DNA of 56,549 bases, counting the filler, from Sluysia triapertura (Eukaryota): assembly GCA_046118255.1 (NCBI GenBank). It is 4 parts of 4 records of this genome, joined end to end, with 100 filler letters (N's around TTAATTAATTAA, not from the genome) between each part and the next. Parts side by side here need not be neighbours in the genome. Positions count along the whole stretch, not along the records: positions 24,644 to 45,472 come from JBJNIA010006661.1; 3 more parts are not named here. One strand, written 5' to 3'. Position numbers and translations under genes: made by a program. Every line of letters starts with the position of its first letter. The first letter of the stretch is position 1. The notes under the pieces were generated by a model. That model was not told where the DNA came from. It ran no database searches and worked only from the letters and a program-made list of their open reading frames with translations. Below, piece after piece: positions 16,060-56,475 of the stretch.

Positions 16060-19000
16060 TCATCATCATCAACACCATAACCATCATCATTATTATCACT
16101 ATTATCATCNNNNNNNNNNNNNNNNNNNNNNNNNNNNNNNNNNNNNNNNNNNNNNNNNNNNNNNNNNNNNNNNNNNNNNNNNNNNNNNNNNNNNNNNNNN
16201 NNNNNNNNNNNNNNNNNNNNNNNNNNNNNNNNNNNNNNNNNNNNNNNNNNNNNNNNNNNNNNNNNNNNNNNNNNNNNNNNNNNNNNNNNNNNNNNNNNNN
16301 NNNNNNNNNNNNNNNNNNNNNNNNNNNNNNNNNNNNNNNNNNNNATTTTGCAATGAATATAAAAATAAAAAAAAGGAATTATTGTGAACCACACTTAACA
16401 CACTGAGGACGGTGTGCAATGAGAATTGTACAGCCTGAATTCCCTGATGCTTTATGTAAATATTTAATAAAATTATCTGGACACGTTTATTTACTTGTAA
16501 TTCTAATTTGTTATATGAAATTCCAAACAAGAATATCCATTAATAAGTGATTCTTATATATATCCTTCTGTAACATGGTCTCGCTCACACGATAAAATTG
16601 TGTAAACCCTCACGTGCTATACAATGACACCTATTTATTTCTGTTGTTGAACACAAAATCTACCAGTGTCGAAATTGAAATCAATAATTTAGAAAATACT
16701 GTTAAAAGAACAGAAACTTACAAAATGAATTGATGAAATAGTTTGAGGATAAATATTTGAACATTAATAATAAAAGAAATTAATCAAAATTTAAGATGTG
16801 AATAATGGAAACTGTGTGGTAACTAAACAATTATTCGAATAATAAGAAATATTCGAATATTATTATGAGTGTGTGCATCTATAACTAAGTGAAAATGTAA
16901 GTGTGTGTATTGTTATCGTTAATGTTGAAAGATGCTATTACATTGAATGTAGGTTGTTAACTGTGTTTTAATTGTTGCGTGTAAAATATCAAAGTTATAA
17001 AAATTAAAATATTGTTATTATTAACCTTGATATAAACATCGTACTTTCCATTATTATAGACCAAAATTTTTATCGATTTAGGCGCATCTAAACTTCTAAG
17101 TAAGCCAAAATGAAATTTATCAGTTAAAAGATAAATTTCTGATTCTAAAAATAAAACAATCACATAAAATTTTACAAATTTATAAACAATGTATAGTTTT
17201 ATCAATAATTTAATCGATTAAGTAACAATTAAAAAAGATGTAATAATAAAATATGACAAACAGAAAATATAAATAGATTTTATGGCTATTTTAGAATTGG
17301 TTAGTTGACAAAAAATACAGTTGATCCCCATATAGAGCTAATTCATATAACGCTTTTAATTTTATTAATATAGATAATTAAACTATGTTTATTATTCTGT
17401 TTGTATGCTTATGTTCGCTTTGTATTCTTATAACGCCATAGTTACGTAACACAAATTCCCATAAGGCGGCACGTAACTATCGTAGACTATTGAAATTACC
17501 AGATTACTTCTCAATCATAGAACTAATCAAAGATTTTAGGATTAAAAAATTTATTTTCTATAGTACTTAGACAAGCAAATTGATATGAAAAGTTAGAGGG
17601 TATTGTAGCTTGTAAGATGAAGAGATCAAGATTTTCTAAAGTTTTACAAAAATTTATCAATGTTCTAAAACAATAAAAATATGTTCTTCTTTGGTTTTCT
17701 TAATATTTGATACCCTGGCATGGAAACTCTCCAGACATGAATTACATAGAAAATCTGTGGGATATTGTCAAAAGGAGAGTTTCTACTCATACACCAACTT
17801 ATTGAAACCCTGAAAAAAGTATGGCATCTGTGGTATGTGTCTTTAAGGATCAGGAAGGAGGGCAAACAAAGTACTGATACAACAGTTTGATTTGTAGTAA
17901 ATTGTGTTATCATTCTACATGAATAAAATTTCTTATGTTTTGAATCTCAGTATTTTTATCTATTATTTTACTTTCAGCAGAATTTTTGGAGAAAATAGTT
18001 ATTTTCCAACATTTTAGATTTTCCGTGACAATGTTTTTATACACTTTTGATTAATAGTTTCATAGTATCCTTGAAAAATGTTGAATTTTATCACTAAAAT
18101 CGTAGTATTTAGTCTAATTTAATTAAAATTGTTTAAAAATTAATATATTTGTATGAGTAAGCATCATTTATAGAATTTATTTGCATTCCGAACACCAAGA
18201 TCGTATGAAGTAGATAACATTTGTAAGCATTTGTCATGATTATTATTGCTTTTATTGGCAACCAATGTAATTCCTTAAGATAAGGTGTTACATGATATCT
18301 TCTTCCCACTTGGAGAATTTTTTCACTTTTCTATTGTTGCTAAATAAGTATGTTGAATCAACTATCGCGTATGATTCTATTATTTAAATACAGATTCTAA
18401 ATGCTCCATTCTTTCTAGCTACTTATGTTTTTCTTGGTCTAAGGTCCCTCTTCTGACGACGTACACTTCATTACATCTATGTTCGTCTATGTTGAAGAAT
18501 TTACAAGGGTTACCAATAAAAGTAAAAGTAGAGTTCAAAATTGTAACAATAATTTATAACAATTTATGCTGATAGGAGATTAAGAAAAAGACAAAGTTCT
18601 TTATACTTTATTTAAGCGCCTTTAAGTACTTATTTTACAGTAGATACTAATATTATTATTGTTATTATCATCAAATTAATCTATTCTTACTAAAATTTAA
18701 TATCTATTTCTATATTGTTTAAAAAATATTACTATTGTAAATATTCCATAATAAAAATTAAATATTTATTGCATAATAGTTTAAAAAAATTCTATAAATA
18801 ATTTTTTTGCATGAACTATCTTTATGCATTAAACAAACAAATTAAACAAACTGTTAGTTATTTCCATAGTAATTGGTAATACAAAACCCAATGGAGTTTG
18901 TGAATTATTAGTTCTAATGCGTAAATAACTTGTAAAATTGCCTAATTTTTCTGTCATAATTTTAATTTTCATTATTGTCCTTGTCTCGTAGGGCTGAATA

Positions 19001-20006
19001 TTCCAAACTTTTTTAGATTGAATTGTATTATAACTCGGAAACTCCAAATGAACATCACTACCGCTAGTGTACATTTCTAGTATTTGTATTGATGTATTTA
19101 AAGGATTGTAGAAATAAATTGGACTAGAAATACTTTCATTTGGTGGCAAAACGAATTTATCGAATGAAATTAAACGATAGGGACTCATTCGACCAAAACC
19201 GGAAACTTTGTAAAAAAATTTACCTTTCGAAGTTGATATTTGAAGCTCAGAATCAATAGGTCCGACATTTCTCGGCAGAAAAACTAAATCAAAAGTTGTA
19301 TTGAATTTTGGACGTAAAATGTGATCTTTGAATGTTGAACAATGAAAATCTTTTGATGGTGATGAAATTGATAACAAATGAATTGAATTATCATTCATTA
19401 TATTCAAAATTTTAATTTGTTGCCATTTTGGTTCACCAATTGATCTTAAACAAATGAAAAATAAGATCGTTTAATCTTAATAAAACATAATTTCATGGCA
19501 TGCATATTAATAAAGGTTAAGTTTAATATGCTTACGTGTCTGAAAAGTCTAAAAACGGTGGCTCAAAAATCATTGGATTTGCTGATATAACACCATCATA
19601 TTTCCTTAAAAGATTAAAATTAGACTATAAATTTAATTTTAATGTAATTTACCAGTCATTCAACATCTGCTTAGTCCCCTGAACAAAATTAATCACACCT
19701 TATAAAAATTATATATTACCCTATTATCTTCTTCAAGAACTATTCTTACATCTGGTTTTGAATTAAAATCTGAATAAAATTCAATTAAATGTACGATTAA
19801 AATCACATTTTGATAATCTAAAACCATGTCGAACTACATTCAAAAATCTACATACATAATAATGCACATTTAATATATACATGCAGTACAAATAAAACAG
19901 TCACACAATACCAATAATATTATAAATAATTAATCAAACCTGTGAAAACATCTCCATTGATTTGAGAGATCAAAATTAAACATAAATATAAAAGAAAATC
20001 AAGCAT
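13888..20006 (-). CDS. TMEM131: transmembrane protein 131, 5' part (9 exons; 3' exons not in this scaffold)
   Basis: In-frame GT-AG exons 20006-19940 (signal peptide MLDFLLYLCLILISQING), 19769-19720, 19678-19653, 19604-19536 (FEPPFLDF), 19444-18852 (FHCSTF..FDLVFLPRNVG..YNPLNTSIQILEMYTSGSDVHLEFP..WNIQPYETRTIM), 17144-17026 (FGLLRSLDAPK), 15972-15870, 14301-14196 and 14038-13888 (ITNTFPFTIAIY). Exon order is collinear with known TMEM131. Confidence 0.92.
14477..14990 (+). mobile_element. mariner transposon, internally deleted, in TMEM131 intron
   Basis: TIRs ttaggttgttgcataagttcccaccgtt / aacggcgagaacttatgcaacaactcaa followed by TA. N-terminal transposase MDCQVDKKSHFRH..FAFNRG..RDICVVYGEDAIAQRTAQ.WF..LLKEDGRQTCRELGEKMNC. 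Confidence 0.92.
15562..15633. mobile_element. 72-bp piggyBac-type miniature element
   Basis: TTAA-cacattatgagcggg ... cccgctcataatgtg-TTAA: perfect 15-bp TIRs with a TTAA duplication. Confidence 0.75.
15995..16109. repeat. (AAT)n/(ATC)n microsatellite running into assembly gap 16110-16344
   Basis: Trinucleotide run seen directly. Confidence 0.9.
17690..18118 (+). mobile_element. Tc1-like transposon 3' fragment
   Basis: LIPWHGNSPDMNYIENLWDIVKRRV...LIETLKKVWH (WPGNSPDLNPIENLW motif). The 3' end is shared with the copies at 25110 and 31211. Confidence 0.88.
18200..18400 (-). mobile_element. L2-type LINE ORF2 C-terminal fragment
   Basis: Minus strand KILQVGRRYHVTPYLKELHWLPIKA (HxTPxLxxLHWLP motif). 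Confidence 0.8.
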
Positions 20007-21330: not shown

Positions 21331-21430
21331 TAATTGACTATAACAAAACAAAACTGTTAGACGGGCTGATAGCTCATTGATCAGCTTTGAAGCTAAAAGG
21401 TCCCGGGTTCGATTCCCTGTCAGTCCATTT
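21331..21430 (+). repeat. tRNA-derived repeat / pseudo-tRNA, copy 1 (internally deleted)
   Basis: gggctgatagctca...ggtcccgggttcgattccctgtcagtcca with a B box; upstream taattgacta...tgttagac shared with the other copies. Confidence 0.8.
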
Positions 21431-24543: not shown

Positions 24544-24643
24544 NNNNNNNNNNNNNNNNNNNNNNNNNNNNNNNNNNNNNNNNNNNNTTAATTAATTAAN
24601 NNNNNNNNNNNNNNNNNNNNNNNNNNNNNNNNNNNNNNNNNNN
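24544..24643. other. artificial scaffold linker
   Basis: 44N-TTAATTAATTAA-44N. Confidence 0.95.
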
Positions 24644-25163: not shown

Positions 25164-26606
25164 TTAACTTAGACATCGTGGATCAAAATAGCGATCATAT
25201 TAATACACAAAATACGAATGCACATGTGCTAGCCAATAATACAGTCGAATCAGTCAATTTGATTGGTATTCAGTCCATGATCCAATCAAAACCCAATGAG
25301 TTATTTGACAACCAAGCAATTTATCAGAATGAAAACAACTGCAGATTGAGAATGCGTGGTCAAATGAAGTATATGATCGAATGGGATGCTGTGGTTTTTC
25401 TTGGTACACCAATGTTAGTTGTAATGATGTTAATGGTGTGTTTACAAAGGTGCAAAGTAAAGATATAAATAAATTATTCTCAATGAATATTATTGAGTAT
25501 CTTATATTTAGCATGCGTGATGTTAACAGTATGTGGAAAGCCGGTCTTTTTATTAATGATCTGAGTATGCACGATTCAAGTCGTGATTTAGTTTTAGCAG
25601 GTGAACAACAATCAGCTGAACTAAGATTGGCTTTAGAACAAGTAACAAAACTTATTTTTTAACAATTATTATTTTACTTACAATAAAGAGTAAATTATTT
25701 TTATTAAAAAATGTTCATTTAGGAAAGTGAAAAAAGTAAACGACTCGAAGACAGTTTACGACGATTGGATGATGAAATGAGAAGAACAGATGAATTGTTG
25801 TATCAAATGATTCCAAGAGCTGTAGCTAATCGATTGCGTAATGGTGAAAAATCAATGAACACTTGTGAAGTAGATTATGTTTCTTTAAAATTAACATATA
25901 AAACAGGACTCGATATCCTTTTTCTTATTTGCACATACGATTAAGCAAAAAAACAAATCATGAATCACACGAATAGATGAAAGATTAAAAATACAAAAAA
26001 AGAACATAATTTTCTGTAAAATTACTACTGACGATCACTTAAATTCTATTTCTAGTCAGAGATAACACGGGATCACGTAATATTGAACAATTGGACTCTA
26101 ACTGAGTTTATCTGCAACATCTCTCTCGTCAGTAAGAGCAGTGTAGTAATGTAGAGTCAATAAATTATTAGTTATGGAAATAAACTAATAAATAAATAAA
26201 TAATAAATAATTAATAAATAAAGTGTAAATTTGAAGCTTTTTTCTACTTTTATATTTTTATGTTTGCAAGTTGTACTTGTTATAACTACGTTATTAACAT
26301 TAACTGATCTGTTTTAGAAATACCATATTAGTTATACAAATCAGAATATAACTTGGAATTAAGTCTCGACACATTAAAAACAACTTATCAAAATAAGAAC
26401 TAACAGGCTCCTAAACGAGTTATCAATTAAGCAGCTACCAATTTTATATAATATTTTAGACGTTTCCAGAAGTAACAGTACTGTTCAGTGATGTGGTTGG
26501 TTTTACAGAAATTTGTAGTCGCATTACACCCTTGGAGGTCGTTCAGATGTTAAATACCATGTATTCGTTATTCGACCAATTGACAGAACGGTATAGAGTT
26601 TACAAG
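25164..26606 (+). CDS. Gyc88E: atypical soluble guanylyl cyclase (Gyc88E-like), internal exons: PAS/HNOBA, coiled coil, start of cyclase domain
   Basis: Exons ~25164-25413 ([22 protein letters not shown]), 25512-25641 ([33 protein letters not shown]), 25723-25869 ([28 protein letters not shown]) and 26460-26606 ([45 protein letters not shown]). All are GT-AG and in frame. Confidence 0.9.
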
Positions 26607-32979: not shown

Positions 32980-34236
32980 AGAGGAAGAAATCTTTATGAG
33001 TTATATGCACGACAGATATTTGGAATTTCAGAAGGACAAACAGAGAAGGGAACGAGAAAAATAAAGTAGATTAACAATTCAACCAATCCAGGTTAAAATT
33101 CGGGAATTATTAGATCAACCTTTAGGAGAAAGCATTGAACAAATAAAGGAGATAAAGGAAGTGATATCAAATGAATATAAAAGAAAAAAAATTCAAGAAT
33201 TAATTGACAAATGGGAAGGAAAGACGAAGAAATCGGAATCAAATAAGTTAGCAGATTCTGAATCAAAAGAAACAGAAGAGGAATCTAATACAGAATCAAT
33301 TCCAACAGAAGAAGAATTGAATATAGAATCAAGTTCAACTGAAGAATTAAACCAAGAAAAATAATCAAATAACGAACTTAATGATTACCAAGAAGTTGAA
33401 ACAGACATAGAAAATATTATTAATAATAAAGAAACTGATGATGAAGAAATACAAGCAGAAGAAATGGAAAGAGGAAGAAGATGCCTATTACAGTGTCACA
33501 GAAGAGATGGAAATAGAGGAAATGGAATCAATAATAATAGCTGCTAATGAAAAAATAGATACCCCAGAAACTGATCAAAATATCGAAGAATTTTTATCCA
33601 ATATGCCTCATGGTAAGGACTTAAATAAAAATTTAAATGACTTATTAGATTCACAAATAAGTTTACAAAATGGACATGATATTAAATTAGAAATAGCTAT
33701 TATAAGTAAAGAAGATAGTTTATAAAAAACTAAAGCAAGAAAATTACTAAGAAAAATAGGACAAAAAGAAAGAAAAGATAACCCCAGAGAATTAATGAAA
33801 ATAAGTATAATTATTAATAATGCCCTGAATATTACTATGGAACTCCCAGTTTCTTCAATTGCAAAAGATATTATAGAATTACTTAAGTCAAATGACTCTG
33901 ATATTACTGATGTTGATTTATATTTTTATGATAGAAAACTATTACTTAATAATTATATAAATGATTACGGTTATCCATCAATGAATGGAAACCACGAGGA
34001 AGTATCAATGACTTCCGCAGTTATTAATAATAAATGATGATAATAATGTTGATTTAGACAGAACCCCACGTTCATTTCTAAGAGAATTAATGGAGGATAA
34101 TCATAATGAAAATAATGAATATAAGGATAATTATAATTATAATAAAATAATAGATGTTACTAATGATAATGAAGATGACACAGAAGAAAAACCTGATTAC
34201 ATAATAGATTTAAATAAAAATCCGCATATTTATTAA
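32980..34236 (+). pseudogene. disrupted intronless ORF: acidic region plus ubiquitin-like domain, related to the gypsy gag-env spacer
   Basis: Consecutive E-rich ORF pieces separated by single stops or frameshifts. 33795-33970 MKISII..NITMELPVSSIAKDIIELLK..DVDLYFYDRKLLLNNYINDYG has a ubiquitin-like pattern. The tail PDYIIDLNKNPHI matches HDYIVNLNRNPHI at ~36630. Confidence 0.55.
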
Positions 34237-34480: not shown

Positions 34481-35318
34481 CATTTTTACAATATAACTAA
34501 TTAATTTAATGAATCTTAATAGTGTATTTTTAATCATTCCATATCTATTATTTATTTATTTAAAATACTATGTTTAAAAAATACTACGCCACATTGCATT
34601 TCGATATTAATATGAAGTAATAATTCACCACAATTAGATGTAATACTTGGAATGCAAGAATTTGTCACAAACTGAGGACACACGTGGAGATCACAAAATT
34701 ATACATAATTTGAAGATAAAATTTAAAGTATGAAGCTCTAAATAGTGGGATCGTTCATTTCAATATTAGAAGAAATTAAAGTTAAAAAACAAAGAAGAAT
34801 AAGAAACAATAAGAAACATAATCTACAATTTATTGCTATGTCCATGTCTGTCGTAAGTTTTTTTATTGTAAGGCCTGTTTCAATTAATTGAAACTCAAAA
34901 TCCACATCGAATAATTTATTTCAAAAGATTGTGTTAATACAATCTGAAATATATAAAAATAGTATTAAAGTAAAACCTCTAATATTTCAAATAATAGTTA
35001 TTGGTGATAATTATAAAGATTTACATTGAATATAAATATATTACATTTGTATTCATTAATAATTACTACTTTTGTTATAACTACATTTTTATTAGATATT
35101 TATTACGTTTACTTATTCTGTTAGATGTTAAATTATTTTTTAGTAATAGAATTTCATCTTGTTCATAACGTTATTATATTTATATTTTATATTATATTAT
35201 ATTATATTTTCTCTTATACCCTGAGCGAGTATAGCCATAGATTGTAAACGGACTCATAAAGTCAAATTTATTTTGTGAGGCTAAGTTAAAAGTACATAAA
35301 ATACACAGCAAAATAATT

Positions 35319-35334
35319 TGGCACCGAATTGGAC
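35319..35334 (+). promoter_or_regulatory. putative primer-binding site (degenerate tRNA-Lys-like)
   Basis: tggcaccgaattggac resembles TGGCGCCCGAACAGGGAC and lies between the LTR-like sequence and gag. Confidence 0.45.
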
Positions 35335-35849
35335 CAACGACATTAACCCATTAAGGACCAGATTTTTTTTCAAAATTTAAAAATCATGACATACATTTAG
35401 TTATCTTGGTATATCACCTTACATACAGACTCAAATATTATAAAAACATTTTTTGTGTACGCAACACATACCAATGCAATAATTGTGCTAGGAAATTTCA
35501 TTATTAAAAATATATTGCAATAAATAAAAAAATATGAACCGTAAAGTCGTCATTTGCTAATGCTTTAAGTATCATATAGTGTTTAAGAATTATAAGTTAT
35601 TTAAGTAAGTATTATTAAGTCTTTTAAATAGACAATTTTCCGATTATATAAGCTATGAAAGTTTCAGGATTAAGTAAGTCATTAAGTTTATTTTGTAGTT
35701 GTATACGCATTAAGCACGGATAATAAATAATATTAACATTAAAAAGAAAAAAAGTTAAAATGACGCTGCCAATAAATGATTTTAGAGAATATATGACTTA
35801 ATTCAACTATAATATTAAGTCTACTGTTATCCTTCCAGAAATAAGAAAA

Positions 35850-36430
35850 GCGTTGCTGAAGCCAATGGCTGGATGGAAATTGAAAAAATTAAATGAAATC
35901 ATTAATTACATAATAGGAGTAGCCATAAAAAAACAAAATAATTCATAATGAGCATAAGCAAGACTGGAACACTTTCAGTAATATATTTACAGAATAAATA
36001 GCTTTAGATGATGTAGATAAGTATTCTGCAAAAGTGTTGAACATAAGAAAACAAAAATATAATGAAACAGTATACGAATTCGCCTGCGCACTTATAAGTT
36101 TACTGGCCTGAGAAAAAATTCCTAATGACAAAAGAGAGTTTTTGTAGATAAATTTAAAGATGGTTAACTAATTTATGTGAACTTAATTGATAATCAACCT
36201 TTTAAGGAAATAGTTAAAAAGCTAAAAAGTAACGAGAGATATCAAGCTGAGGAAAAAGATAATATAAGTTATATAAAGAATAATACTTATAAGGATGAAA
36301 ATTTAGGTTATGAGTCCAAAAATGCATCTCCGAGAAATTTTTGAGACAATAATAATAGAAATATAAGTAATTTTCGAGGAAATGCAAAAGAAATGCAAAT
36401 ACTTTTTGTCCAAGAGGAAATATAATAATG
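35850..36430 (+). pseudogene. gypsy gag (capsid) remnant
   Basis: VAEANGWMEIEK..YIIGVA..KQDWNTFSNIFTE*IALDDVDKYSAKVLNIRKQKYNETVYEFACAL..VDKFKDG..IDNQPFKEIVKKL; homologous to 44410-44770. Confidence 0.8.
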
Positions 36431-37229
36431 TTACGCGAAATAACTCAAGAGGATATGGGAGAACTGAGCTATCAGCCAGTTTAACAATTTTATTTTATCA
36501 TATTCTAAATCGTGGCACTTCAGGCATTTTATTCCAACAGTAGATGAAGTCCCATATTCCTTTTGAAACAGTTCATGAATGAAAATGACATTGAAAACGA
36601 TATTACTGAAAATGATGTGTACCAATTGAACATGATTATATAGTGAATCTTAACAGAAACCCACACATTGAAACCAGCGACAAAGAGACAAATACAATAA
36701 AAAGAGGAGCAAGAAAAATCTAAAATAATACATTTAAACCGCCAAACTCTATTCACTGAAATTCTATTCATTTGACTAAAATAACCTGTGAAAAAGAAAA
36801 TGAAAAAATTGCTCCAGCTACTCAAAGTATAATGTAGGCATTATTGTATGCATTAGGACAAGAAAATACTAATTAAACTAAAGGATTATAGGGTACCTGT
36901 AACAAAAATAATGAAACAAATGGAAGAAAATATAAAAGAAAAAAGCGATTAACTAGACACTGATCAATACAAATTGATAAAAAATAAACAAATTAACGCA
37001 GGATTAAATAATGAAAGATTTAAAATTATCTTAGCCTATATAATGTTTCAATGCGATAAGTTATAATTCTTGTTAGTAAGAAACGAAATTGTGGATTGAT
37101 AATCAAGGATGCCGAAGAAATGTAATAAAAGAAAAACAGAATCAAAACTCGAATAATCCATATAATTTGCTGTCAGATTTATTTAGTTGTTATAACGATA
37201 TGATAAATACGATGATTCCAAGATTAAAT

Positions 37230-37420
37230 ACGAAGATTCATAATAATACTTTTAGCCATGCTCGGCATAAATAAATCGAACGGAATAAAAGCATTTGACG
37301 GTAGCCAGCCGAAACTTCTCTTCACACGAAACAGAAGATTGACCCGAATGCAGACCAAATGGAAGTCGAATAAAACATTCAAAAATTTTAAATGTTTATC
37401 AAGAGGGAAATTAGGTAACT
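37230..37420 (+). pseudogene. N-terminus of viral-type envelope glycoprotein (signal peptide and start of ectodomain)
   Basis: RRFIIILLAMLGINKSNG|IKAFD(G)SQPKL..FSSHETED*PECRPN..LNVYQEG corresponds to the signal-xxG/AY/FDC...SLxxxxxC...Q start of chuvirus-type glycoproteins. Confidence 0.6.
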
Positions 37421-37948
37421 TTTGTTATCACATAAAATTACAAATTTGCATAGAATTCATCTACTAACATTTCCTACATTTCATATCCTCATCTCACATC
37501 ATATGAAACTCCAGTAAAATCATTAAAACATAAACTACTATAATTGACTGTAACAATATTACAATTTGTTCCATTGATATCGCCTTTTCTATTCCGCAAG
37601 AACACCTACATAACTTTATCACTTTTTTAACCTATGTATGTAATTTTATAATTGTTGGATGTTGCACTTTATCATTTTTTGTTCTTTCTATTGATGTATA
37701 TTAATGAAGTACATAACAATTAAAAGACAAAGAAAAGAGCAGTTTTAAAAGAAAAAGACGTCTTGTTTAAATATTATGTTTTGATTAAAATTTTAAAAAA
37801 AGGTGTTTAATATATTAGCGAAAAAATAATTTCAAAAGAAGACTTTGAATACTTTGAGCGAATTTAATATGAAAGATAATGCGCATCGACGATATCGTAA
37901 TATGGAATAAAGAGATCACTTTAAAAAAACATCTATATGCAAACGACG

Positions 37949-38240
37949 CACATTTACTGTGAATGCAAAGAGGAATCAAATTATTACTATGTGGTCGTAT
38001 ATGATCATAATTTATGCAAAGACCATGGCGATCAAACTAAAGAAAACAAATGTATTGTAGATACATGCAAAAAATTTGATTCCAGCTGTGACATTTAGAA
38101 TCAGAAATCCAAGGAGGACTGAAAACGTGGACTCGATGATGAATTTAAACATGTAAATACAAATGTGGTTTTTCTGTGATGATTATCGTTATAGGAATAC
38201 TTCACTTATTGTATAGATTACTTAGATCATGATGTGTTCC
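37949..38240 (+). pseudogene. B-box zinc-finger (TRIM-like) gene remnant
   Basis: HIYCECKEESNYY...HNLCKDHG, then WFFCDD...TYCIDYLDHDV: two B-box-like Cys/His patterns, with stops and frameshifts. Confidence 0.4.
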
Positions 38241-38693
38241 GAATTTCATTCAAAAAAATTTCAAATATAAAGTTTAGAAGTGGTGAAACTTAGTCATAAA
38301 TGCTTTAATTGCTGGAAATGATTTAACGGAATTCAAAAACTCGATTACGTATTACTTGGTTGTGGCTTCGACAAATGAATGCAACGTATTAAACAGCCAC
38401 TTGAGGTTTGGCTCAACGCACTATGATTATTTTTAAGAACGATTAGCTATCATGGAAGAAAAAATTCAAAATAATGTCAGAAGACATTTGGGACATTCAT
38501 TCAAGAAGTTTATATTCAATTGCTTTATGCTCGAGTCTACATTATACGTGTAATCCTTACAAATATAGACTGAAAATTCACAATTTTTCAGAATCGGGAG
38601 TTTTAATTCACTGATCGAGTTTCGTCCAAGAAATTGCAATTTTCAAAACGCATGTTTTGAAAAACATATATTTTTAATGTTGTATTTTTAATG

Positions 38694-39943
38694 CAGTCAA
38701 CCCTCATTAATCCGAAAAATTAGAAATCGATTTCCTTTCGGATTGTGAATTAATTCGAATAATGAAGGAATTTAAAATCTATATGATAGCTAGTTTAATG
38801 ATGAAATTATTAAGAAAATGACAATTATTTATTTAAAAAAATCATCTAACGCTTTTTGCAGAGGTTTCTTTTGAATGAATTTTCTAAAATCATCTTTGAC
38901 TTCTTTTAAATATTTTACTGCATCATTGCTTATTTTTTGAGTAGAGCTGTCTGAAGAAGAACTTGCTTCGATGACAATTTCAATTGTTTGGGCTTATCTT
39001 GTAATTGTCATCGACCTGACCATCTTCAGCACTAAGTACAACATCTTTAACAGTGTATTCTTCTTGACACAGTGCAGTGATTTCATCATCATCAAGCGCT
39101 TCTGTTTGAATCATATCCTCTTCAACCATTATTTGGTGAAGCTCATTTTTGTGTGTCTCAAAAACGGGATCTTCTTCAGTATAAGATCCGTGAATGCCTG
39201 GAATAATCGCAACCTTTTTGAAACAATTTTTGATGATTTCTTGTTTCACAACTTCTGGATCAATTACTGACAAATTTTTCAACCATTTTTTTCTATGGGC
39301 TGAAATATCAACATCATTGAATTTGCTTCTCCATGGAGAACTTTCAATTTCAGATTAAATCGAATCTATAGAATCATCCTTTGCTGAATTGCAGGTCATA
39401 CATATTTAGTGTTTATCCACATTCCTTTGCTTTTGTAATGATAATTTCATCAGTCACATAACCATTTATCCCATCCATTCGAGATATCCATTCCATCAAT
39501 GAATTCTGAAGCAGAGAATGAATTTTCGAAGACTGTCTGGAGTAAGTGTTTGAGCCTTCACAATTTTCATACTTCTCTATTTTTGAAAATTTCTCATGAC
39601 ATTGAAATTCCTAGGTCAAGGTTTAATTCCTTTCTGATAATTTGAAACAATTCACTCAACGACATTTTCTTCAACTCCTTTATTGCACAAATTTTTGCCT
39701 TTTGATGAATTGTAATTTCTGTTCTTTTTCTAGTCATGCGGATATATATTTTAAATAAACTGAAATTGTAAAATTTAAATAATATTAATCCGAAACTTAT
39801 TAGAAATTTAATTCAAAGAAAGCTTTCCGATTGCGGATCGTGAAGTTTCGGATTAATGAATCAAATTTGTCTGGAAAAAAATTAATTTTTTTGGACTATG
39901 AATTCTTAGGATTATTGAACTTCGGATTAATGAGGGTTGACTT
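38694..39943 (-). mobile_element. Tigger/pogo DNA transposon with deleted DDE core
   Basis: TIRs cagtcaaccctcattaatccgaa / ttcggattaatgagggttgactt followed by TA. Minus-strand MTRKRTEITIHQKAKIC (ATG 39737), LMEWISRM..VTDEIIITKAKE, LKVLHGEANS, VKQEIIKNCFKK and terminal QKALDDFFK*. Confidence 0.92.
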
Positions 39944-40134
39944 TATATGCAAAATCTCGTCCCTTCATTTATTTATTAAAGTGTTTTTAATTTTAATAAA
40001 TTTTCGTAGTCTGATTATAATAGCTTTTCATACTTTAATAAAGTTTTTCCAATCAAATAAGCGTAAGGACCTTAAGTGCTTTTTTAATTTCAATTTTCAT
40101 TTTAAACATTTGCTAAGATTAATAATATTCCGGC

Positions 40135-41776
40135 TATTACAACACTAGTAAGAGAATACATGGTTAAAAGGTGAGTAGCAATTATCATAGCCATTATTCG
40201 ATAACAGTATTATCAAATATTTGAAACCTTTTACGATTTTACCTCATCAATGTAGAGATACTTTCGAAACTGGATGTATACGACTGAATGAAGGGAATAA
40301 GTTAAGAATCTTAACACAATCTTAGAACCGCAGGTAATGTATTAATGAATGGAACTTGTGAAGAAGGAATTATAGAATACGAAGGTAAATTTTATCGTAA
40401 TGTTGTGGCCCAGGAAACATATTTTATAAGCTTAAAATCATTTAACGAAAGCTTCGATGTCGAAAAAGGCACATGTAACGATCATATTGCAGAATAGGTC
40501 AGACTAGTTGCAACACGGGGGAATCCACATTAATTTATGAAACAGATAGATTTAAGTGTCCTTTAATATTCCTGAAACAGATAAAATTTAATCTAGTATC
40601 CGGATTGGTATATCGAGATAACGATGAATTTTCAATAGAAGAAATAGAAATAAATAGGAAACAAAAAAAGAAAATATGGACCATTTATAAAACATAAAGA
40701 AACTACGACAATATTAATGTCCAGTAGAGAAGATGACGGATAATTTTATAAAAAGAAGTAGTTATCCCATGTGAAAAAGAAATTACAGAGACTTATTACC
40801 AAAGTATTTATTTAACGGAACAGGCAATATTACAAGGGGATTGAATAAAAAAAATAAAATTAAATATTTATTTTAATAATAAAATAGACTTATATTTTAT
40901 CACTTGGTATTGATGTCATTAGGGTAGATATATCAAATAATGATCGTACCATGCCAACTTAACAAAGAAATATTGCGCACGAAACTCGTAGTTACACTAC
41001 TACTACCATTAGGAGTTTTCGGTAAATTAAAGGGAGAAGTGTTATACGCAAAACGATAGAAGTGCAATTATGGTCAGAAGCAGAATGCATTAATGAGTTA
41101 TCTATACTATATGGTAATATACAAACATATGCAGAACCACTAACAAGAGTTATTTTACCAAAGCCGATATACTGTTCAAACGTAATGGCACCTGATTATA
41201 AAATTCATGATAATTTATGGATATAACTAACAAACAGATATCAGGTTAGACCGCGTGAGATAATAGGATTAATATAATTAAAAGGCCAATTAAAATTTTT
41301 GGCAACGAAAAATATATTAAACTCCGAATTTATACAAATGATGATATTCAAGCTGCATGGATAAAAATACTATTCCCCATAAAAATATCAAAGATTCAGA
41401 CAGATATTGTAGATAAGATAATAATAGAAAAAAATGGTCACGTAAGTTTCGAATTATTAGGATCAGGTTATTCAAGAAAGCAGCATAAAACACTTTAAAA
41501 CAGTTTTCTAATATTAGGCCAAGCTTTCTCCGGACTTATAGGTATTTATATAATAATTCAAGTAATTGCGTTAATAATATCCCAAGAATTTTCAGATGTA
41601 TTTTAAATTTTGGGACGATTTCCAGTTTTAGCTGAAATCTTTTACATCACCATACTAATTCTCAAATAAATGCATTAAAGAAATAAAATAAACAAACTGA
41701 AACCGTAGTTCTACAAACAATAAATTGGAATAATGGAACAGAAATGGAAAAAGTATACCCATTAGCCTCAACTTAA
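40135..41776 (+). pseudogene. chuvirus-type (herpes gB-like, class III fusion) envelope glycoprotein, main body
   Basis: Ordered motifs across frameshifts: HSHYS, HQCRDTFETG, TAGNVLMNGTCEEG..GKFYRNVVAQETYFISL, CRIGQTSCNTGESTLIY..KC, PCEKEITETYYQSIYLTE, LNIYFNNKID, CQLNKEILRTKL, GEVLY, ECINELSILYG..YAEPLTRVIL..YCSNVMAPDYKI..W, NS(G)IYTNDDI..ILFP, and TM segment FLILGQAFSGLIGIYIIIQVIALII. Confidence 0.8.
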
Positions 41777-41796
41777 CCTCTACTTAATGTATTTAT

Positions 41797-44210
41797 ATGA
41801 TATGTGCGAATAACAATTATAATGATGCGGAAAGGCCAATGGCTAAAATTCGAATAAACGGCAGAATGATTTCTAAACTAATAGATACAGGAGCAGTAGC
41901 TTCTTTAATAAACCACAGTATTTTAACTGATGAAGAATTAAAAAATCTTGTGGAGCATGTGTATCATTTATCAGGAAGCACCGAAACGCAATACACATTG
42001 TTGGTATTATGAAACTCAATATTAAATTAAGAGTTATGAAAAATTGTCCTGAGGATACGATTATGGGGATGGATATACTATCACAACTAAAAGGAATAAT
42101 ATTGGATTTTAATAAAGCCAAATTAATGGACACTTGCTCATATAGATGATGATGATGTATTCTTAGACGAAACTTTATGGTAATTAAGCAGAAGTGAATA
42201 TGTAATGCCGGCGAGTACTAATATTTTGCTAAAAGGTCACATTATGTTTACTTCATCAGAACATAACCAGGAAAAAATGGACAAAGGAATAGCTGATTCC
42301 ATTTGTAATAATTGCGAAGGAAAAGCACCGGTTCGAATAAGAAATTACACAAATGATAACAAATGGCTGTATGCAGGAATTAAATTGGGAAATATTGTCA
42401 ATTATAAAGTGGAAATGCATATTATTAACCTTGTTACATGCAAACATATATCAAAAGTACTAGTATAAAATAAGAATGAGAAATAGGCGATGAGGATTAT
42501 GAAGAAATTAAAATTGAAAATAAGAATTTAACAAGAAAGTAAAATGAAAAATTATACATCATTTATAGATACACAAAAGTAACTGAAAAAAATAAATACC
42601 ACATAGGAGATTCTGTTTATCATTAAACGAGAGAGACTGCTAACAGAGGATAACGTAATTCGAAAAAATCTATATAGGATTCCAATATGCAATCGAAACG
42701 AAATACAAAATCAAAGAGATATAATGATTTCTCTCTAGTTAAAAGAAAGATGGAACCATGACTTCTTTTCTAATTATGAGATTCTGCACATATTTCAGAT
42801 AACCAAAGTGGATTTTTTGCCTCTATCTAGAATATAGGAAATGTTAGATAAATTAGGGAACTGTCGGTTTACAAAACGGATGTTGTCAGATAGAAATCGC
42901 AGAAAGCACAAGCACAAAACGGCATTCACGCGTGGCGATGAATTATACGAGTCGTTAGGATTACTGGAGCCCAACGTTCTATGAATTTCATTTTGTCTGG
43001 TTGTAAATAAAGTCATGGTGTACATAAATGAAATAATAATTTTCTTTAATGATTTTGAGACACACTTAAAGAATATATCGATAATATATTAAAAAGTTAA
43101 AAATACACCCTACAATATGTGTATGGGCTGGAGAACAAGTGGAGTTTTTAGAACGCGTACTATCAAATAATGTGATTAAATCCCATCCAAAGAATATTGA
43201 AAAGGTGGTTAAATCCAAATAGCCGGGTAATGTTAAGAAAGTACAAATATTTTTAAGGATTGGCAAACTATTAAAGAAGATTTGTCAAATATTTTGCCAA
43301 AATAACCTTTAAGAAAATTAACAAAAAAAGGATGTTTAATTTAAATAGACTGAAGCTCAAACAAATGCATTTAATCATCTTAAAGAAATATTAACTACTG
43401 CACCAAAATTGATTTTTCCGGATGTAAGTAATTCTTTCATTGTAATAGAAGATGCTAACAATTATGCTTTCGGAGAAATTGTAGGATAAAAGGACAAGAA
43501 TAATCTAGAAGCGGTTTTTATCTACGCTAGCTGCCGTTTAAATAAAGCCGAGATGAATTACTACATTATTGAAAGAGAATGTTTAGCGATTGTCTATACT
43601 CGCAAATTGCTTAGAAATTATTTATTAGGACAAAAAATTTATCTACATATTGATCATAAACCACTTACATAGAGATGAAGTAATGAATTAAACTGATGAT
43701 TAAATAAGTTATCAGAATTCGATTCATAAATTATGGCACCGATTGTATATCCAGATTAACTAACATAGACGAAGAAGGCAATGTAAGTCTTCATGAAAAG
43801 TCGAAGATATAAAATAAATTATAAACATCATATTATACATCAATTAGTAAAAGGCACTTTAAATGAAAACAATCTGAAAGACTGACGGAATTTAACGATT
43901 TAGAAATCGCAGAAATGAATGAAAAACAACACTCCCACAATCTTTAATTAAACCTAAACTAATAGAATTACATGATGGGTAATTGGGTGGTCACCTATCT
44001 ACAAGAAAAGTAAGTATTATTGGAAAGAAACGGAAAACAATATCAGAAAATTGTGTAAAAATTACACAATGTGCTGTAGAAGAATACAGCGAAAAACAAA
44101 AGCACTATCACCTACGGAATTTACGGCTATTGAAATTATGTGTCCATTGCCGGAAACACTTAGTGGAAATAAATAACTGTTTTTGCGGATTATCTAACAA
44201 AGTGAGTGTA
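41797..44210 (+). pseudogene. Ty3/gypsy pol remnant (protease, RT, RNase H, integrase start)
   Basis: LIDTGAVASLI and IMGMDIL (PR); YRIP, KKDGT, KHKTAFT, VYINEIIIF, VEFLE, LANY.RRFV (RT); AFNHLKEILTTAPKL, DANNYAFG, YASCRLNKAEMNY..ERECLAIV, DHKPL (RH); HDG.LGGH, PLPETLSGNK, DYLTK (IN). PR-RT-RH-IN order is gypsy-type. Confidence 0.93.
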
Positions 44211-44279
44211 CATTTGTTCGTAATTATTTTGTTTATTAATAAAAAATTTTTCATTTGAAATCTTATATCTTTTAAAAGG

Positions 44280-45472
44280 AAAAAGAGACCTCGATTATAT
44301 TGATATATTATAATAAGTGGTTATAAAATACAGTTGATATTAATAAAAATTAAATTGTCTAATGGTGCCCTAATGATATAAAAGTATATAAAAATGATAT
44401 AAAAAAGGATATAAAAGGAGTCGCTATTTAGACGTACAAAGAAAGTAAACCAGAGAAAAAACAAGATTGGACTACATTTTTAAATGCATTTACAGAAGAA
44501 ATCACCTTGGATGACATAGGTAAATATCATCTTAGAATGTTAAATATTAGTAAACAAAGAGAAGACGAAACCGTTTACGAATTCCCATGCGCATTAAAAT
44601 TTTTCGTAGTAAGAGCTAAAATACATAGTGATAAGAGAAAAGCAACGTTAATAGATAAACTGAAGAATGGTCTACGACACGAATTGCAAGTATTTGTAAG
44701 TTTAATAGATAATAAACCGTTTAAGGAAGTAGTAAAGACATTAAGGGGTATAGAAAGATCACAAAAAGAAACTGAAAAATCACGAAAAGAAAAAGTTAAT
44801 ATAAATTATATAGATAAGGACTGAATGACCTAAAAATAAACCTAGAGATTACTTCGAGGATAGTGATTTTGAAACAAATAAATGTCAAGAAAATAAAAGA
44901 GGCCTAAACAGTTATAATTAAAGGAATAATTATCAGAATCAAGGAAAAAATTACCAAAATTCAGTCAGAGGTTATCAAAATTCAGGAATAGGAAATAAAT
45001 TCATCATCAAAATTCAAACAGAAACTATCAAAATACAAGATGAGCTACAAGAGGATTCGCCAGAAATTATTCGAACAATGGTCCCAGAGATTATGAGCAC
45101 AATAAAGCTTATAAAGCAACTAGAGGAATAATATATAGACAAAGATGTTGGAGATTTTACAGAGAATGGACAGTATAAATCAATTATTAATAAACAACTT
45201 AGTAAGGAAATAAATAGAGAAAGATTTAAAATAATTTTAGCTTACGTCATATTTCAATGCAATAAGGAAAGGATAAGTGATAAGAATAAAATAAATAAGG
45301 TTATAGAATTCGTTGATAATGGACATTATGGGTCCTCTTCCATAAACTATTAATGGCAATGAGTATATAATTGTATTTGTGCATTATTTGACTAAATGGC
45401 CAGAGGTTTATCCGAGGCCTAATCAAAAGGCTGAAACAGTAGCACAGATACTCGTAGAAAAGATTATATATA
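44280..45472 (+). mobile_element. second, related gypsy element: gag, spacer fragment and integrase core, truncated by scaffold end
   Basis: KQDWTTFLNAFTEEITLDD..KQREDETVYEF..IDKLKNGL (gag); knuckle remnant RCWR.YRE; NKQLSKEINRERFKIILAYVIFQC (matches 36980-37060); DIMGPLP*TINGNEYIIVFVHYLTKWPEVYP.PNQKAETVAQILVEKII (integrase). Confidence 0.88.
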
Positions 45473-45572
45473 NNNNNNNNNNNNNNNNNNNNNNNNNNNN
45501 NNNNNNNNNNNNNNNNTTAATTAATTAANNNNNNNNNNNNNNNNNNNNNNNNNNNNNNNNNNNNNNNNNNNN
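45473..45572. other. artificial scaffold linker
   Basis: 44N-TTAATTAATTAA-44N. Confidence 0.95.
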
Positions 45573-45682
45573 AAAATGGACTGACCGGCGATCGAACCCG
45601 GACCTGTAGCTGCGCAGTTCGATGCTCTACCCACTGAGCTATCAACCCCGTCTAACAAATTTTAGATTACTTTAGTCAATTA
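45573..45682 (-). repeat. tRNA-derived repeat / pseudo-tRNA, copy 2
   Basis: Reverse complement gggttgatagctcagtgggtagagcatcgaactgcgcagctacaggtccgggttcgatcgccggtcagtcca-tttt. A and B boxes, acceptor and D stems are recognisable; the anticodon stem is unpaired. Confidence 0.85.
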
Positions 45683-47920: not shown

Positions 47921-47975
47921 TTATTATTATTATTGTTGTTGCTGGGGTAAAAGGCCTTAAAGTGCCATGATGGTA

Positions 47976-48079
47976 TATTGACTATAATAAAATAACATTG
48001 TTAGGCGGGGCTGATAGCTCACTTGTAGAGCATCGAACTGCGCAGCTAGATGTCCCGGGTTCGATCCCCGGTCAGTCTA
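47976..48079 (+). repeat. tRNA-derived repeat / pseudo-tRNA, copy 3
   Basis: gggctgatagctcacttgtagagcatcgaactgcgcagctagatgtcccgggttcgatccccggtcagtcta followed by (ATT)n; perfect T-arm. Confidence 0.85.
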
Positions 48080-54893: not shown

Positions 54894-55338
54894 TTCAAAT
54901 AATATATATTGTAAGATTAGAGTTATTATTATTTTGTAACCGCAACAGTGAAATATGCATCAGTTCAAATCCCATCACGATATATCTACCATTTATTCCT
55001 GTAACCAAAGCACTATCATAATCTATGAATTTACAATGAATAAACTCTGACTTTAATAATCTTTTGATTACTTTTTAATTTTACATGTTAAAAAAATAAT
55101 ATTTAAAATTATCTCATAAAAATATATTAATATTTTAACCAAAAAATGACAAAAATGTGTAATATATTTCTAGTTACTTAAACATATTGTGTACTTTTTT
55201 TTAGTTTTATCATACTGTTTTCTTTAGATTTTAATTTAGTAACAAAAAAAGTATTTTGGAATAAACAATTTTTTGTATTACATTCTTACAGCTTCATCAT
55301 TAGTTGTATTATTTATAATTATATATTTAGAAACTTAC

Positions 55339-56013
55339 ACTAATAGATTCACGCAATCCAGTTCCATCGACATCATTAATGTTTGTTTCTAAATATAAAT
55401 ATCCTCCAATCAGTTTTAGTTCAAACCAAACATTAGGTTTTGTTCTGTGCGTTCGGAAAATAGTCCCATCTGATTGTTGTGTTTTGAACGAAATAGCAAT
55501 ATCATCTGAATGTGTTTTCATCATACGATTTTTATTATCTTCATTTTTAAAGTCAATTAAATAGAAGCTGATACCGAGACTTACCAACGGTTCTGAATTT
55601 CGTACACAAACTTCACTTCGTTGAATATTGTCAACTGGTGAACGATATGTTCGAGATGTTATCGAACAGTCACAATAAAAATTAGCTTCACCAGTGAATG
55701 GATAAGTACGATCGTGGCACGAGCCACCTTGACATAAAGATGCTTTACAACTAGGTATATCATCTAAACATTTGCCACTAATATCAATACCACTAATTTC
55801 TCCCGAATACTGATTAATTGTACCTCTGGGATCAATGTATTTATCATCGTTTACGCGTATGTAATTAACACATCCAACAAAACCAATACGTGACCAAACA
55901 TTCCATGGAAGACGACTAGGACTATCTATTCCTCCAATGTATGTATAAGTTCCAAATGCTTTCTGATGACCAGTACTATCTTTGATCGGTATAGGTACAT
56001 TATCAAATGTGGC
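55339..56013 (-). CDS. NRXN: alpha-neurexin-like exon (LNS-EGF-LNS)
   Basis: 675-bp open exon between tttcAG and GTaagt: YIGGIDSPSRLPWNVWSRIGFVGC..CKASLCQGGSCHD..FICDCSIT..C..MKTHSDDIAISFKTQQSDG..ELKLIGGYLYLETNIND; collinear with the LNS3-EGF2-LNS4 region of neurexin. Confidence 0.82.
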
Positions 56014-56475
56014 CTGAAATTAAAGGTTATGAATCATTAAAATATGTATGAATCATCCAAAAATTGTTGCCATAAATATATTAAGGTCAATCAATATAAA
56101 AATTAAGATGATTAATAATTTTGTAAAAAAAATTTCACTAAATTTTTATTATTTATTATTTAAATAAATCATTAATAATATTATTAATATATTAAATACC
56201 GTTAATAAAATTTATGCATATTTTTTATTTTATCTTTCAATTTTATTATTCATTACTTTAATCCAAACACCTACTAAACTAAAAATAAAATTCAAATCAA
56301 TAAATATTAGGCTAAATATGTATTCTAAAAATAGAAACATAAGTGTTAAAAGCAGTTCAGTAATCATTCGTGCAAATATCTGCACAGAAATGGAAAAGAA
56401 AATAGAAAAATAATGCACAAAATGAAATAATTTGATATACCTAAAAAGCGATTATTAATCATATGTTAATTTCAA

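Follow-up and report, generated by a model that had tools for sequence, protein, structure and literature searches.

We have examined a stretch of 56,549 nucleotides (nt), hereafter the window, from the Sluysia triapertura assembly GCA_046118255.1, and our analyses centre on a retroelement at positions 35160–44250. With high confidence, we regard it as an inactive Ty3/gypsy long terminal repeat (LTR) retrotransposon, split by an insertion and of the already known gag-env-pol kind, which carries a chuvirus/glycoprotein B (gB)-type envelope gene (env), resembles the Burro-like "ancient errantiviruses", lies in what is likely a flatworm genome and descends from an active ancestor that likely made one polyprotein. 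The copy is dead: it contains stops, frame changes, a 2.7-kb insertion and a truncated integrase, and no long open reading frame (ORF) is left in 35160–44250. Its gag capsid lies upstream and its pol region shows protease (PR), reverse transcriptase (RT), RNase H (RH) and integrase (IN) in this order with gypsy-type domains; env lies between gag and pol, with a class III ectodomain between a signal segment and a transmembrane segment, as in the errantiviruses that combine the GAG-ENV-POL order with a gB-type env.

The main env remnant (40137–41776, plus strand) comprises a chuvirus/gB-type class III ectodomain, a transmembrane segment (41523–41579, mean hydropathy 2.5) and a cytoplasmic tail. 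It was recognized by Pfam family PF24664 (Monjiviricetes_fusion; E 4.6e-11 and 4.5e-6 in two frames of 40100–41800, stops read as X), by collinear tblastn matches and by a profile of relatives. A shorter 5' piece (37231–37411, plus strand), identified by profile and hydropathy, holds a signal-like hydrophobic segment (37237–37269, mean hydropathy 3.2) and the start of the ectodomain. The env profile maps to 37234–37435 (profile positions 3–73) and 40224–41594 (positions 101–588), with scores of up to 68 bits in the main part; within the 5' piece, positions 31–73 score 13.4 bits and positions 3–30 score 6 bits, the latter not significant alone, and the maximum on five shuffled sets of 1884 chunks was 8.2 bits. 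With an X at each break, env scores 317 bits on the profile of 18 relatives, to which it is 26–35% identical, and despite 22 X among 538 env positions it keeps 46 of the 73 invariant columns and 9 of the 14 conserved cysteines. When one env frame was used in a word-based protein search, none of 1246 candidates matched. An earlier note on this DNA had described a signal peptide, a cysteine-patterned ectodomain and a transmembrane segment; all of these are present, in a gene that is split by 2725 nt.

The fold of env was modelled on the ectodomain of an intact relative, P0005, using an 18-row alignment (predicted local distance difference test, pLDDT, 72; predicted template modelling score, pTM, 0.44). 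The best matches among viral models were chu-like virus glycoproteins (E 2e-33, TM-score up to 0.64) and, among solved structures, gB of a herpesvirus (herpes simplex virus, HSV; E 2e-13), at sequence identities of about 18–21% for the top chu-like matches and 10–13% for gB. On the model of this relative, the predicted fold class of env is class III, chuvirus/gB-like, which agrees with the class that the earlier note had assigned. P0005 was deposited as a protein of a Flavobacteriaceae metagenome-assembled genome and is likely misbinned animal DNA.

The secondary insertion that splits env (2725 nt, 37412–40136, no strand assigned, outer part without assignment) is delimited by a contig join and by the env profile continuing across it. 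One contig (depth 4354) joins 37411 to 40137, while long contigs matching the window copy have depths of 13–21; the protein-level continuity is the stronger support for the joint, because the short side of this contig has only 21 letters. A Tigger/pogo-type DNA transposon (38695–39942, minus strand) with perfect 22-nt terminal inverted repeats and an HTH_Tnp_Tc5 match (E 1.9e-4) is nested in the insertion. The outer parts (37412–38694 and 39943–40136) consist of decayed, Cys/His-rich frames in which no Pfam family was matched and no terminal repeat was found.

Upstream of env, the gag capsid claimed in the earlier note could be confirmed as a broken remnant (35941–36302, plus strand): a profile built from eight relatives matches 35941–36132 (E 1.4e-8, 31 bits, against best scores of 3.4–11.7 bits on five shuffled sets of 1884 chunks), and the remnant shows 43–57% amino acid (aa) identity to a second gag fragment at 44453–44821. 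The gag-env spacer (36530–37200, plus strand) is 55% identical at the aa level to 45141–45266 and holds a helical segment, of identity not established, where Burro has a BCL2-like domain. Its single-sequence fold is all-helical (pLDDT 56), no BCL2-like domain was found in it by Pfam, by a two-sequence profile or in a PDB search, hhalign against Bcl-2 gave a probability of 1% and Atlas returned no useful match; in the relatives, Bcl-2 matches are themselves weak (E 0.0015–0.008). At the 5' end, a putative LTR remnant (35160–35318, plus strand) is present in one copy, self-comparison revealing no second copy within the window. A repeat boundary at 35080–35495 fits, since the summed contig depth steps up from 41 to 3233 in this bin. 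The adjoining TGG site (35319–35330, plus strand), a candidate primer-binding site (PBS), matches 8 of the 12 letters of a tRNA-Phe primer site when compared by eye with supplement 1 of PMC13524379.

The pol region lies on the plus strand and consists of an aspartic protease remnant (41824–42134; RVP, E 2.3e-4 by Pfam, and profile), a PR-RT intervening domain (42139–42468; pol profile E 2e-12), an RT with degenerate catalytic motif followed by the connection and an RH remnant (42571–43672; RT_RNaseH_2, E 1.2e-21), and the zinc-binding region and core start of a truncated integrase (43866–44179; profile positions 754–873 of 1129), which ends at about 44179, early in the core. The intervening domain stands at the position of the dUTPase-like domain described for Burro (PMC6431247), and no Pfam match to dUTPase was obtained for it. 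The pol profile of the relatives covers 41824–44179 as positions 2–873 of 1129, the RT and the zinc-binding part of IN are collinear with the relatives, and 43097–43666 is 35–40% identical to 13 of them. The mapped segments contain 17 stops, and region 43672–43866, where the RNase H plus "mini" domain bridge of ancient errantiviruses would be expected, is heavily decayed and shorter than in the relatives. The closest solved match of the relatives' pol is Ty3 Gag-Pol (E 1e-175), and the gypsy-type pol of the earlier note is upheld by this match together with the RVP and RT_RNaseH_2 domains.

The gene order in intact relatives bears directly on the origin of this arrangement. A phmmer search with one env frame and no length filter returned eight proteins, all with PF24664, of which five have env followed by PR in one chain and the other three are env-only proteins (186–492 aa) from contigs of 0.8–5.9 kb. 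In a second search, limited to proteins of 1444–4598 aa, env and PR were found in 13 of 13, with RT also present in 10, and env always came first. Gag features occur at the start of several relatives (zinc knuckles in 4 of 11 newly found, Ty3_capsid in one), and a metagenome scan yielded at least one locus from 589 pattern matches. In the metagenome contig L001, a single open frame of 3426 aa runs from a ubiquitin-like (Ubl) domain through Bcl2-like, env and protease domains to pol. Neither the gag fragment nor the env alignment led to a confirmed locus when viral contigs were scanned with them. Because env precedes PR in single polyproteins of the relatives, in every one that has both, and because env-PR-RT-RH-IN of the window is collinear with P0005, the gag-env-pol order is native to the family and not an artefact of nesting. 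The proposal of the earlier note that the fusogen was independently captured is not supported, since the 18 relatives have an env 26–35% identical to that of the window and, wherever env and PR are both present, the same layout. Additional domains were observed in some polyproteins (P0013, P0016, P0024 and P0005), viz. repeated aspartic proteases, ankyrin repeats, C2H2 fingers and an Ig domain after integrase, and L001 has, downstream of the polyprotein frame, a separate ORF of 496 aa (10617–12107) with an RNase_T-type exonuclease domain (E 1.4e-5).

The ancestral state of the family was most likely, judging from these sequences, a single gag-env-pol polyprotein, and the stop at the end of the window env is therefore likely one lesion among many. 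This stop (41774–41776) is followed 20 nt downstream by an ATG, at the distance that the earlier note gave for the start of pol. However, the stop is in a frame other than that of the transmembrane segment, the intact relatives have no stop at the corresponding site and stops and frame changes abound throughout the copy, on which grounds this stop is likely a decay lesion; an env that ends as a separate ORF before pol is thus not borne out.

Four known systems come closest to the element. Burro/GYPSM1 of planarians (PMC6431247, 2019) comprises giant gypsy-like LTR retrotransposons of >30 kb with an ORF1 of about 4900 aa, in which env follows a BCL2-like domain, precedes PR and matches mononegavirus fusion proteins; ubiquitin-like (PF11976) and dUTPase-like domains are also present, and decayed fragments with stops and frameshifts occur in Dugesia japonica (PMC6431247). 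The window element shares with Burro an env of the mononegavirus-fusion type between gag and pol, PR-RT-RH-IN with a PR-RT intervening domain, high copy, a spacer ubiquitin-like domain (here in a neighbouring fragment) and the stops and frameshifts of decayed copies; the env of Burro is in frame with gag and pol, whereas the window frames are broken and in the relatives env forms one chain with pol or PR. We file the element as Burro-like, within the GAG-ENV-POL gB-type errantiviruses, and not as Burro itself, because it falls short of the size of Burro and a BCL2-like domain was not shown. Such errantiviruses with an HSV/gB-type env have been reported systematically from Nematoda, Bryozoa and Platyhelminthes, with six families in Schmidtea mediterranea (Smed_errantivirus_1–6) of 1–215 copies each (PMC13524379, 2026). 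These ancient errantiviruses, especially Smed_errantivirus_1–6 of cysteine type C1a, have in common with the window element the gene order, the gypsy pol and a class III env with signal and transmembrane segments, and, judged by eye, domains I–II of the Schmidtea rows agree with it in their pattern of cysteines and motifs; the published elements are intact, whereas the window copy lacks the intact ORFs that their criteria ask for (PMC13524379). The layout, which the earlier note took to be unusual, was therefore already described in these sources. The searched parts of PMC13524379 make no mention of Burro, and a whole-word search of PMC8532177 found neither Burro nor envelope or env. The glycoprotein (G) of Chuviridae/Jingchuvirales and herpesvirus gB share with env the PF24664 family and the class III fold (that of the intact relative), but the fusogen is here inside a retroelement polyprotein and the sequence identity is low. 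Non-canonical endogenous retroviruses of nematodes are said to have a continuous gag-env-pro-pol ORF. By description only, these elements, in which the env/pol order is flipped in a metavirus, resemble ours in this order and in an RNA-virus-type glycoprotein (Sacco et al., 2022, as cited in PMC13524379).

Two related fragments flank the element. The first (33065–34236, plus strand), recognized by Ubl profile and depth, corresponds to an acidic/helical region and the ubiquitin-like domain of the gag-env spacer, a part that the main copy lacks; the relatives' Ubl profile matches 33609–33890 (E 4.4e-5), Atlas gives PF11976 as a lead only (score 0.87), a short match links the fragment to 36634–36669 and its summed depth is 45,000–80,000. 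The second (44411–45472, plus strand; summed depth 47,000–67,000) has capsid (E 4e-12), spacer and then directly the integrase core (E 7e-24), is without env, PR and RT, and ends at an assembly gap; it may have arisen by a single deletion or may be a non-autonomous derivative. In all, 8448 records of one sequencing run aligned to the stretch, of which no more than 785 did so at ≥99%. The summed depth of env is 7,000–41,000, which is not a copy number but shows that the run contains many diverged relatives of the element; these depth data suggest a large expansion of the family in the host.

Gag-env-pol elements with a gB-type env are known from Platyhelminthes, Nematoda and Bryozoa. In the window the host genes are animal without close match, and the env motif points to the flatworm group. 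A TMEM131 exon (18829–19467, minus strand; Pfam) had four matches in total, at 40% identity to two mollusc and 37–38% to two bee proteins, and values this low make an insect or mollusc host unlikely, in keeping with the earlier view that the host is probably not an insect. The TGES motif of the window env occurs in only three rows of the env table of PMC13524379, all of them Schmidtea C1a, and the pattern around it agrees with these rows by eye. Given this motif and pattern, together with the nearby Ubl-like fragment and its PF11976 lead, the host is likely a flatworm.

Several points weigh against the interpretation as a Burro-like errantivirus of a flatworm. The low identity to all database relatives would leave room for a distinct family, and in a tree of the RT thumb and RH with 13 relatives the window sequence sits on a very long, unplaced branch. 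The length limit of the second search favours polyproteins, and the predicted fold comes from P0005, not from the window copy. The LTR and PBS of the element are unproven, as is a BCL2-like domain within the window. Compared with the >30 kb of Burro, the copy measures about 6.4 kb without the insertion and is 3' truncated, and the zinc knuckles, ankyrin/BIR/MATH domains and paired LTRs of Burro were not found in it. At the DNA level, the joint across the insertion depends on a single contig that extends by 21 letters on the shorter side, and the mollusc and bee matches of TMEM131 would not by themselves name a host phylum.

Of the other readings, the one that fares best, although we consider it unlikely, is that the element represents a compact gag-env-pol family of very high abundance that has not been listed before, with env about 35% identical to anything in the searched databases, whose more abundant gag-spacer-integrase derivative (44411–45472) would travel as a non-autonomous hitch-hiker on enveloped particles, possibly in a host lineage from which such elements are so far not known. 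Somewhat less probable is a distinct compact family in which env terminates at a stop of its own and pol is produced separately, by re-initiation, frameshift or splicing, possibly in an unrecorded host group. The stop with its ATG 20 nt later, the modest identity of the closest database relatives (about 35% for env and 40% for RH) and a gag-env spacer of about 0.9 kb, where Burro-like relatives have several kb, speak for this proposal; however, one more stop is to be expected in a copy with this many breaks in env and pol, and none of the examined relatives that have both env and PR carry them in separate proteins. That nested or tandem insertions produced the order by chance, with a free env fragment lodged between gag and pol of different elements, is highly improbable: the region is indeed a nest, with the Tigger-bearing insertion in env and the two related fragments beside it, but env-PR-RT-RH-IN is collinear with single natural polyproteins, the same order is seen in every relative with env and PR, and P0005 and P0025 show a similar spacing from transmembrane segment to PR. 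BEL/Pao elements also have the order PR-RT-RH-IN, and this counts in favour of the mosquito-type alternative, in which a BEL/Pao element bears a chuvirus glycoprotein. This last proposal has almost no chance of being correct, although some BEL/Pao elements do carry Chuviridae-like glycoproteins (PMC13524379), as the window and its relatives have RT_RNaseH/RT_RNaseH_2, the relatives have Integrase_H2C2 (one of them also Ty3_capsid), no Pao-type family is among the Pfam matches of either, and the best solved match of the relatives' pol is Ty3.

For a Burro-like gag-env-pol element, the following life cycle can be proposed. One transcript would be translated into one polyprotein, the source of the capsid, of a class III fusogen anchored in the membrane and of the pol enzymes. 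The internal hydrophobic segment may thread the ectodomain into the endoplasmic reticulum, the transmembrane segment may halt transfer so that PR-RT-RH-IN comes back to the cytosol, and the parts could be freed by host signal peptidase together with the element protease. A trimeric class III fusogen on budded particles might then carry the element between host cells. The element may once have been infectious, as the earlier note suggested. After its insertion, the window copy would have gained the 2.7-kb insertion, become truncated at its 3' end and decayed; it is itself incapable of any of these steps. One dead copy on its own contributes little, since its layout, its env class and its likely host group have been published before. 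In intact relatives a single polyprotein does combine gag with a class III fusogen and pol, which raises a question of topology and processing, viz. by what route pol regains the cytosol and what the 1:1:1 output signifies. If intact copies are expressed, they would allow one to see whether enveloped particles are formed by such elements in an animal that regenerates.

The window is animal DNA with a G+C content of 18–33% per kb and is interrupted by assembly gaps. In addition to TMEM131, Pfam identified exons of a soluble guanylyl cyclase (HNOBA; 25333–25659, plus strand) and of a laminin-G protein (55330–56019, minus strand). The identical N-linker-N markers at 12193–12292, 24544–24643 and 45473–45572 are assembly artefacts and not repeats. 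ARAGORN found no tRNA in the window, including at two tRNA-like sites detected by Rfam (45577–45648, minus strand, 37 bits; 48008–48079, plus strand, 41 bits), which are possibly heads of short interspersed nuclear elements (SINEs) or pseudogenes. Lastly, 36462–36539 resembles 47940–48024 and 21336–21376.

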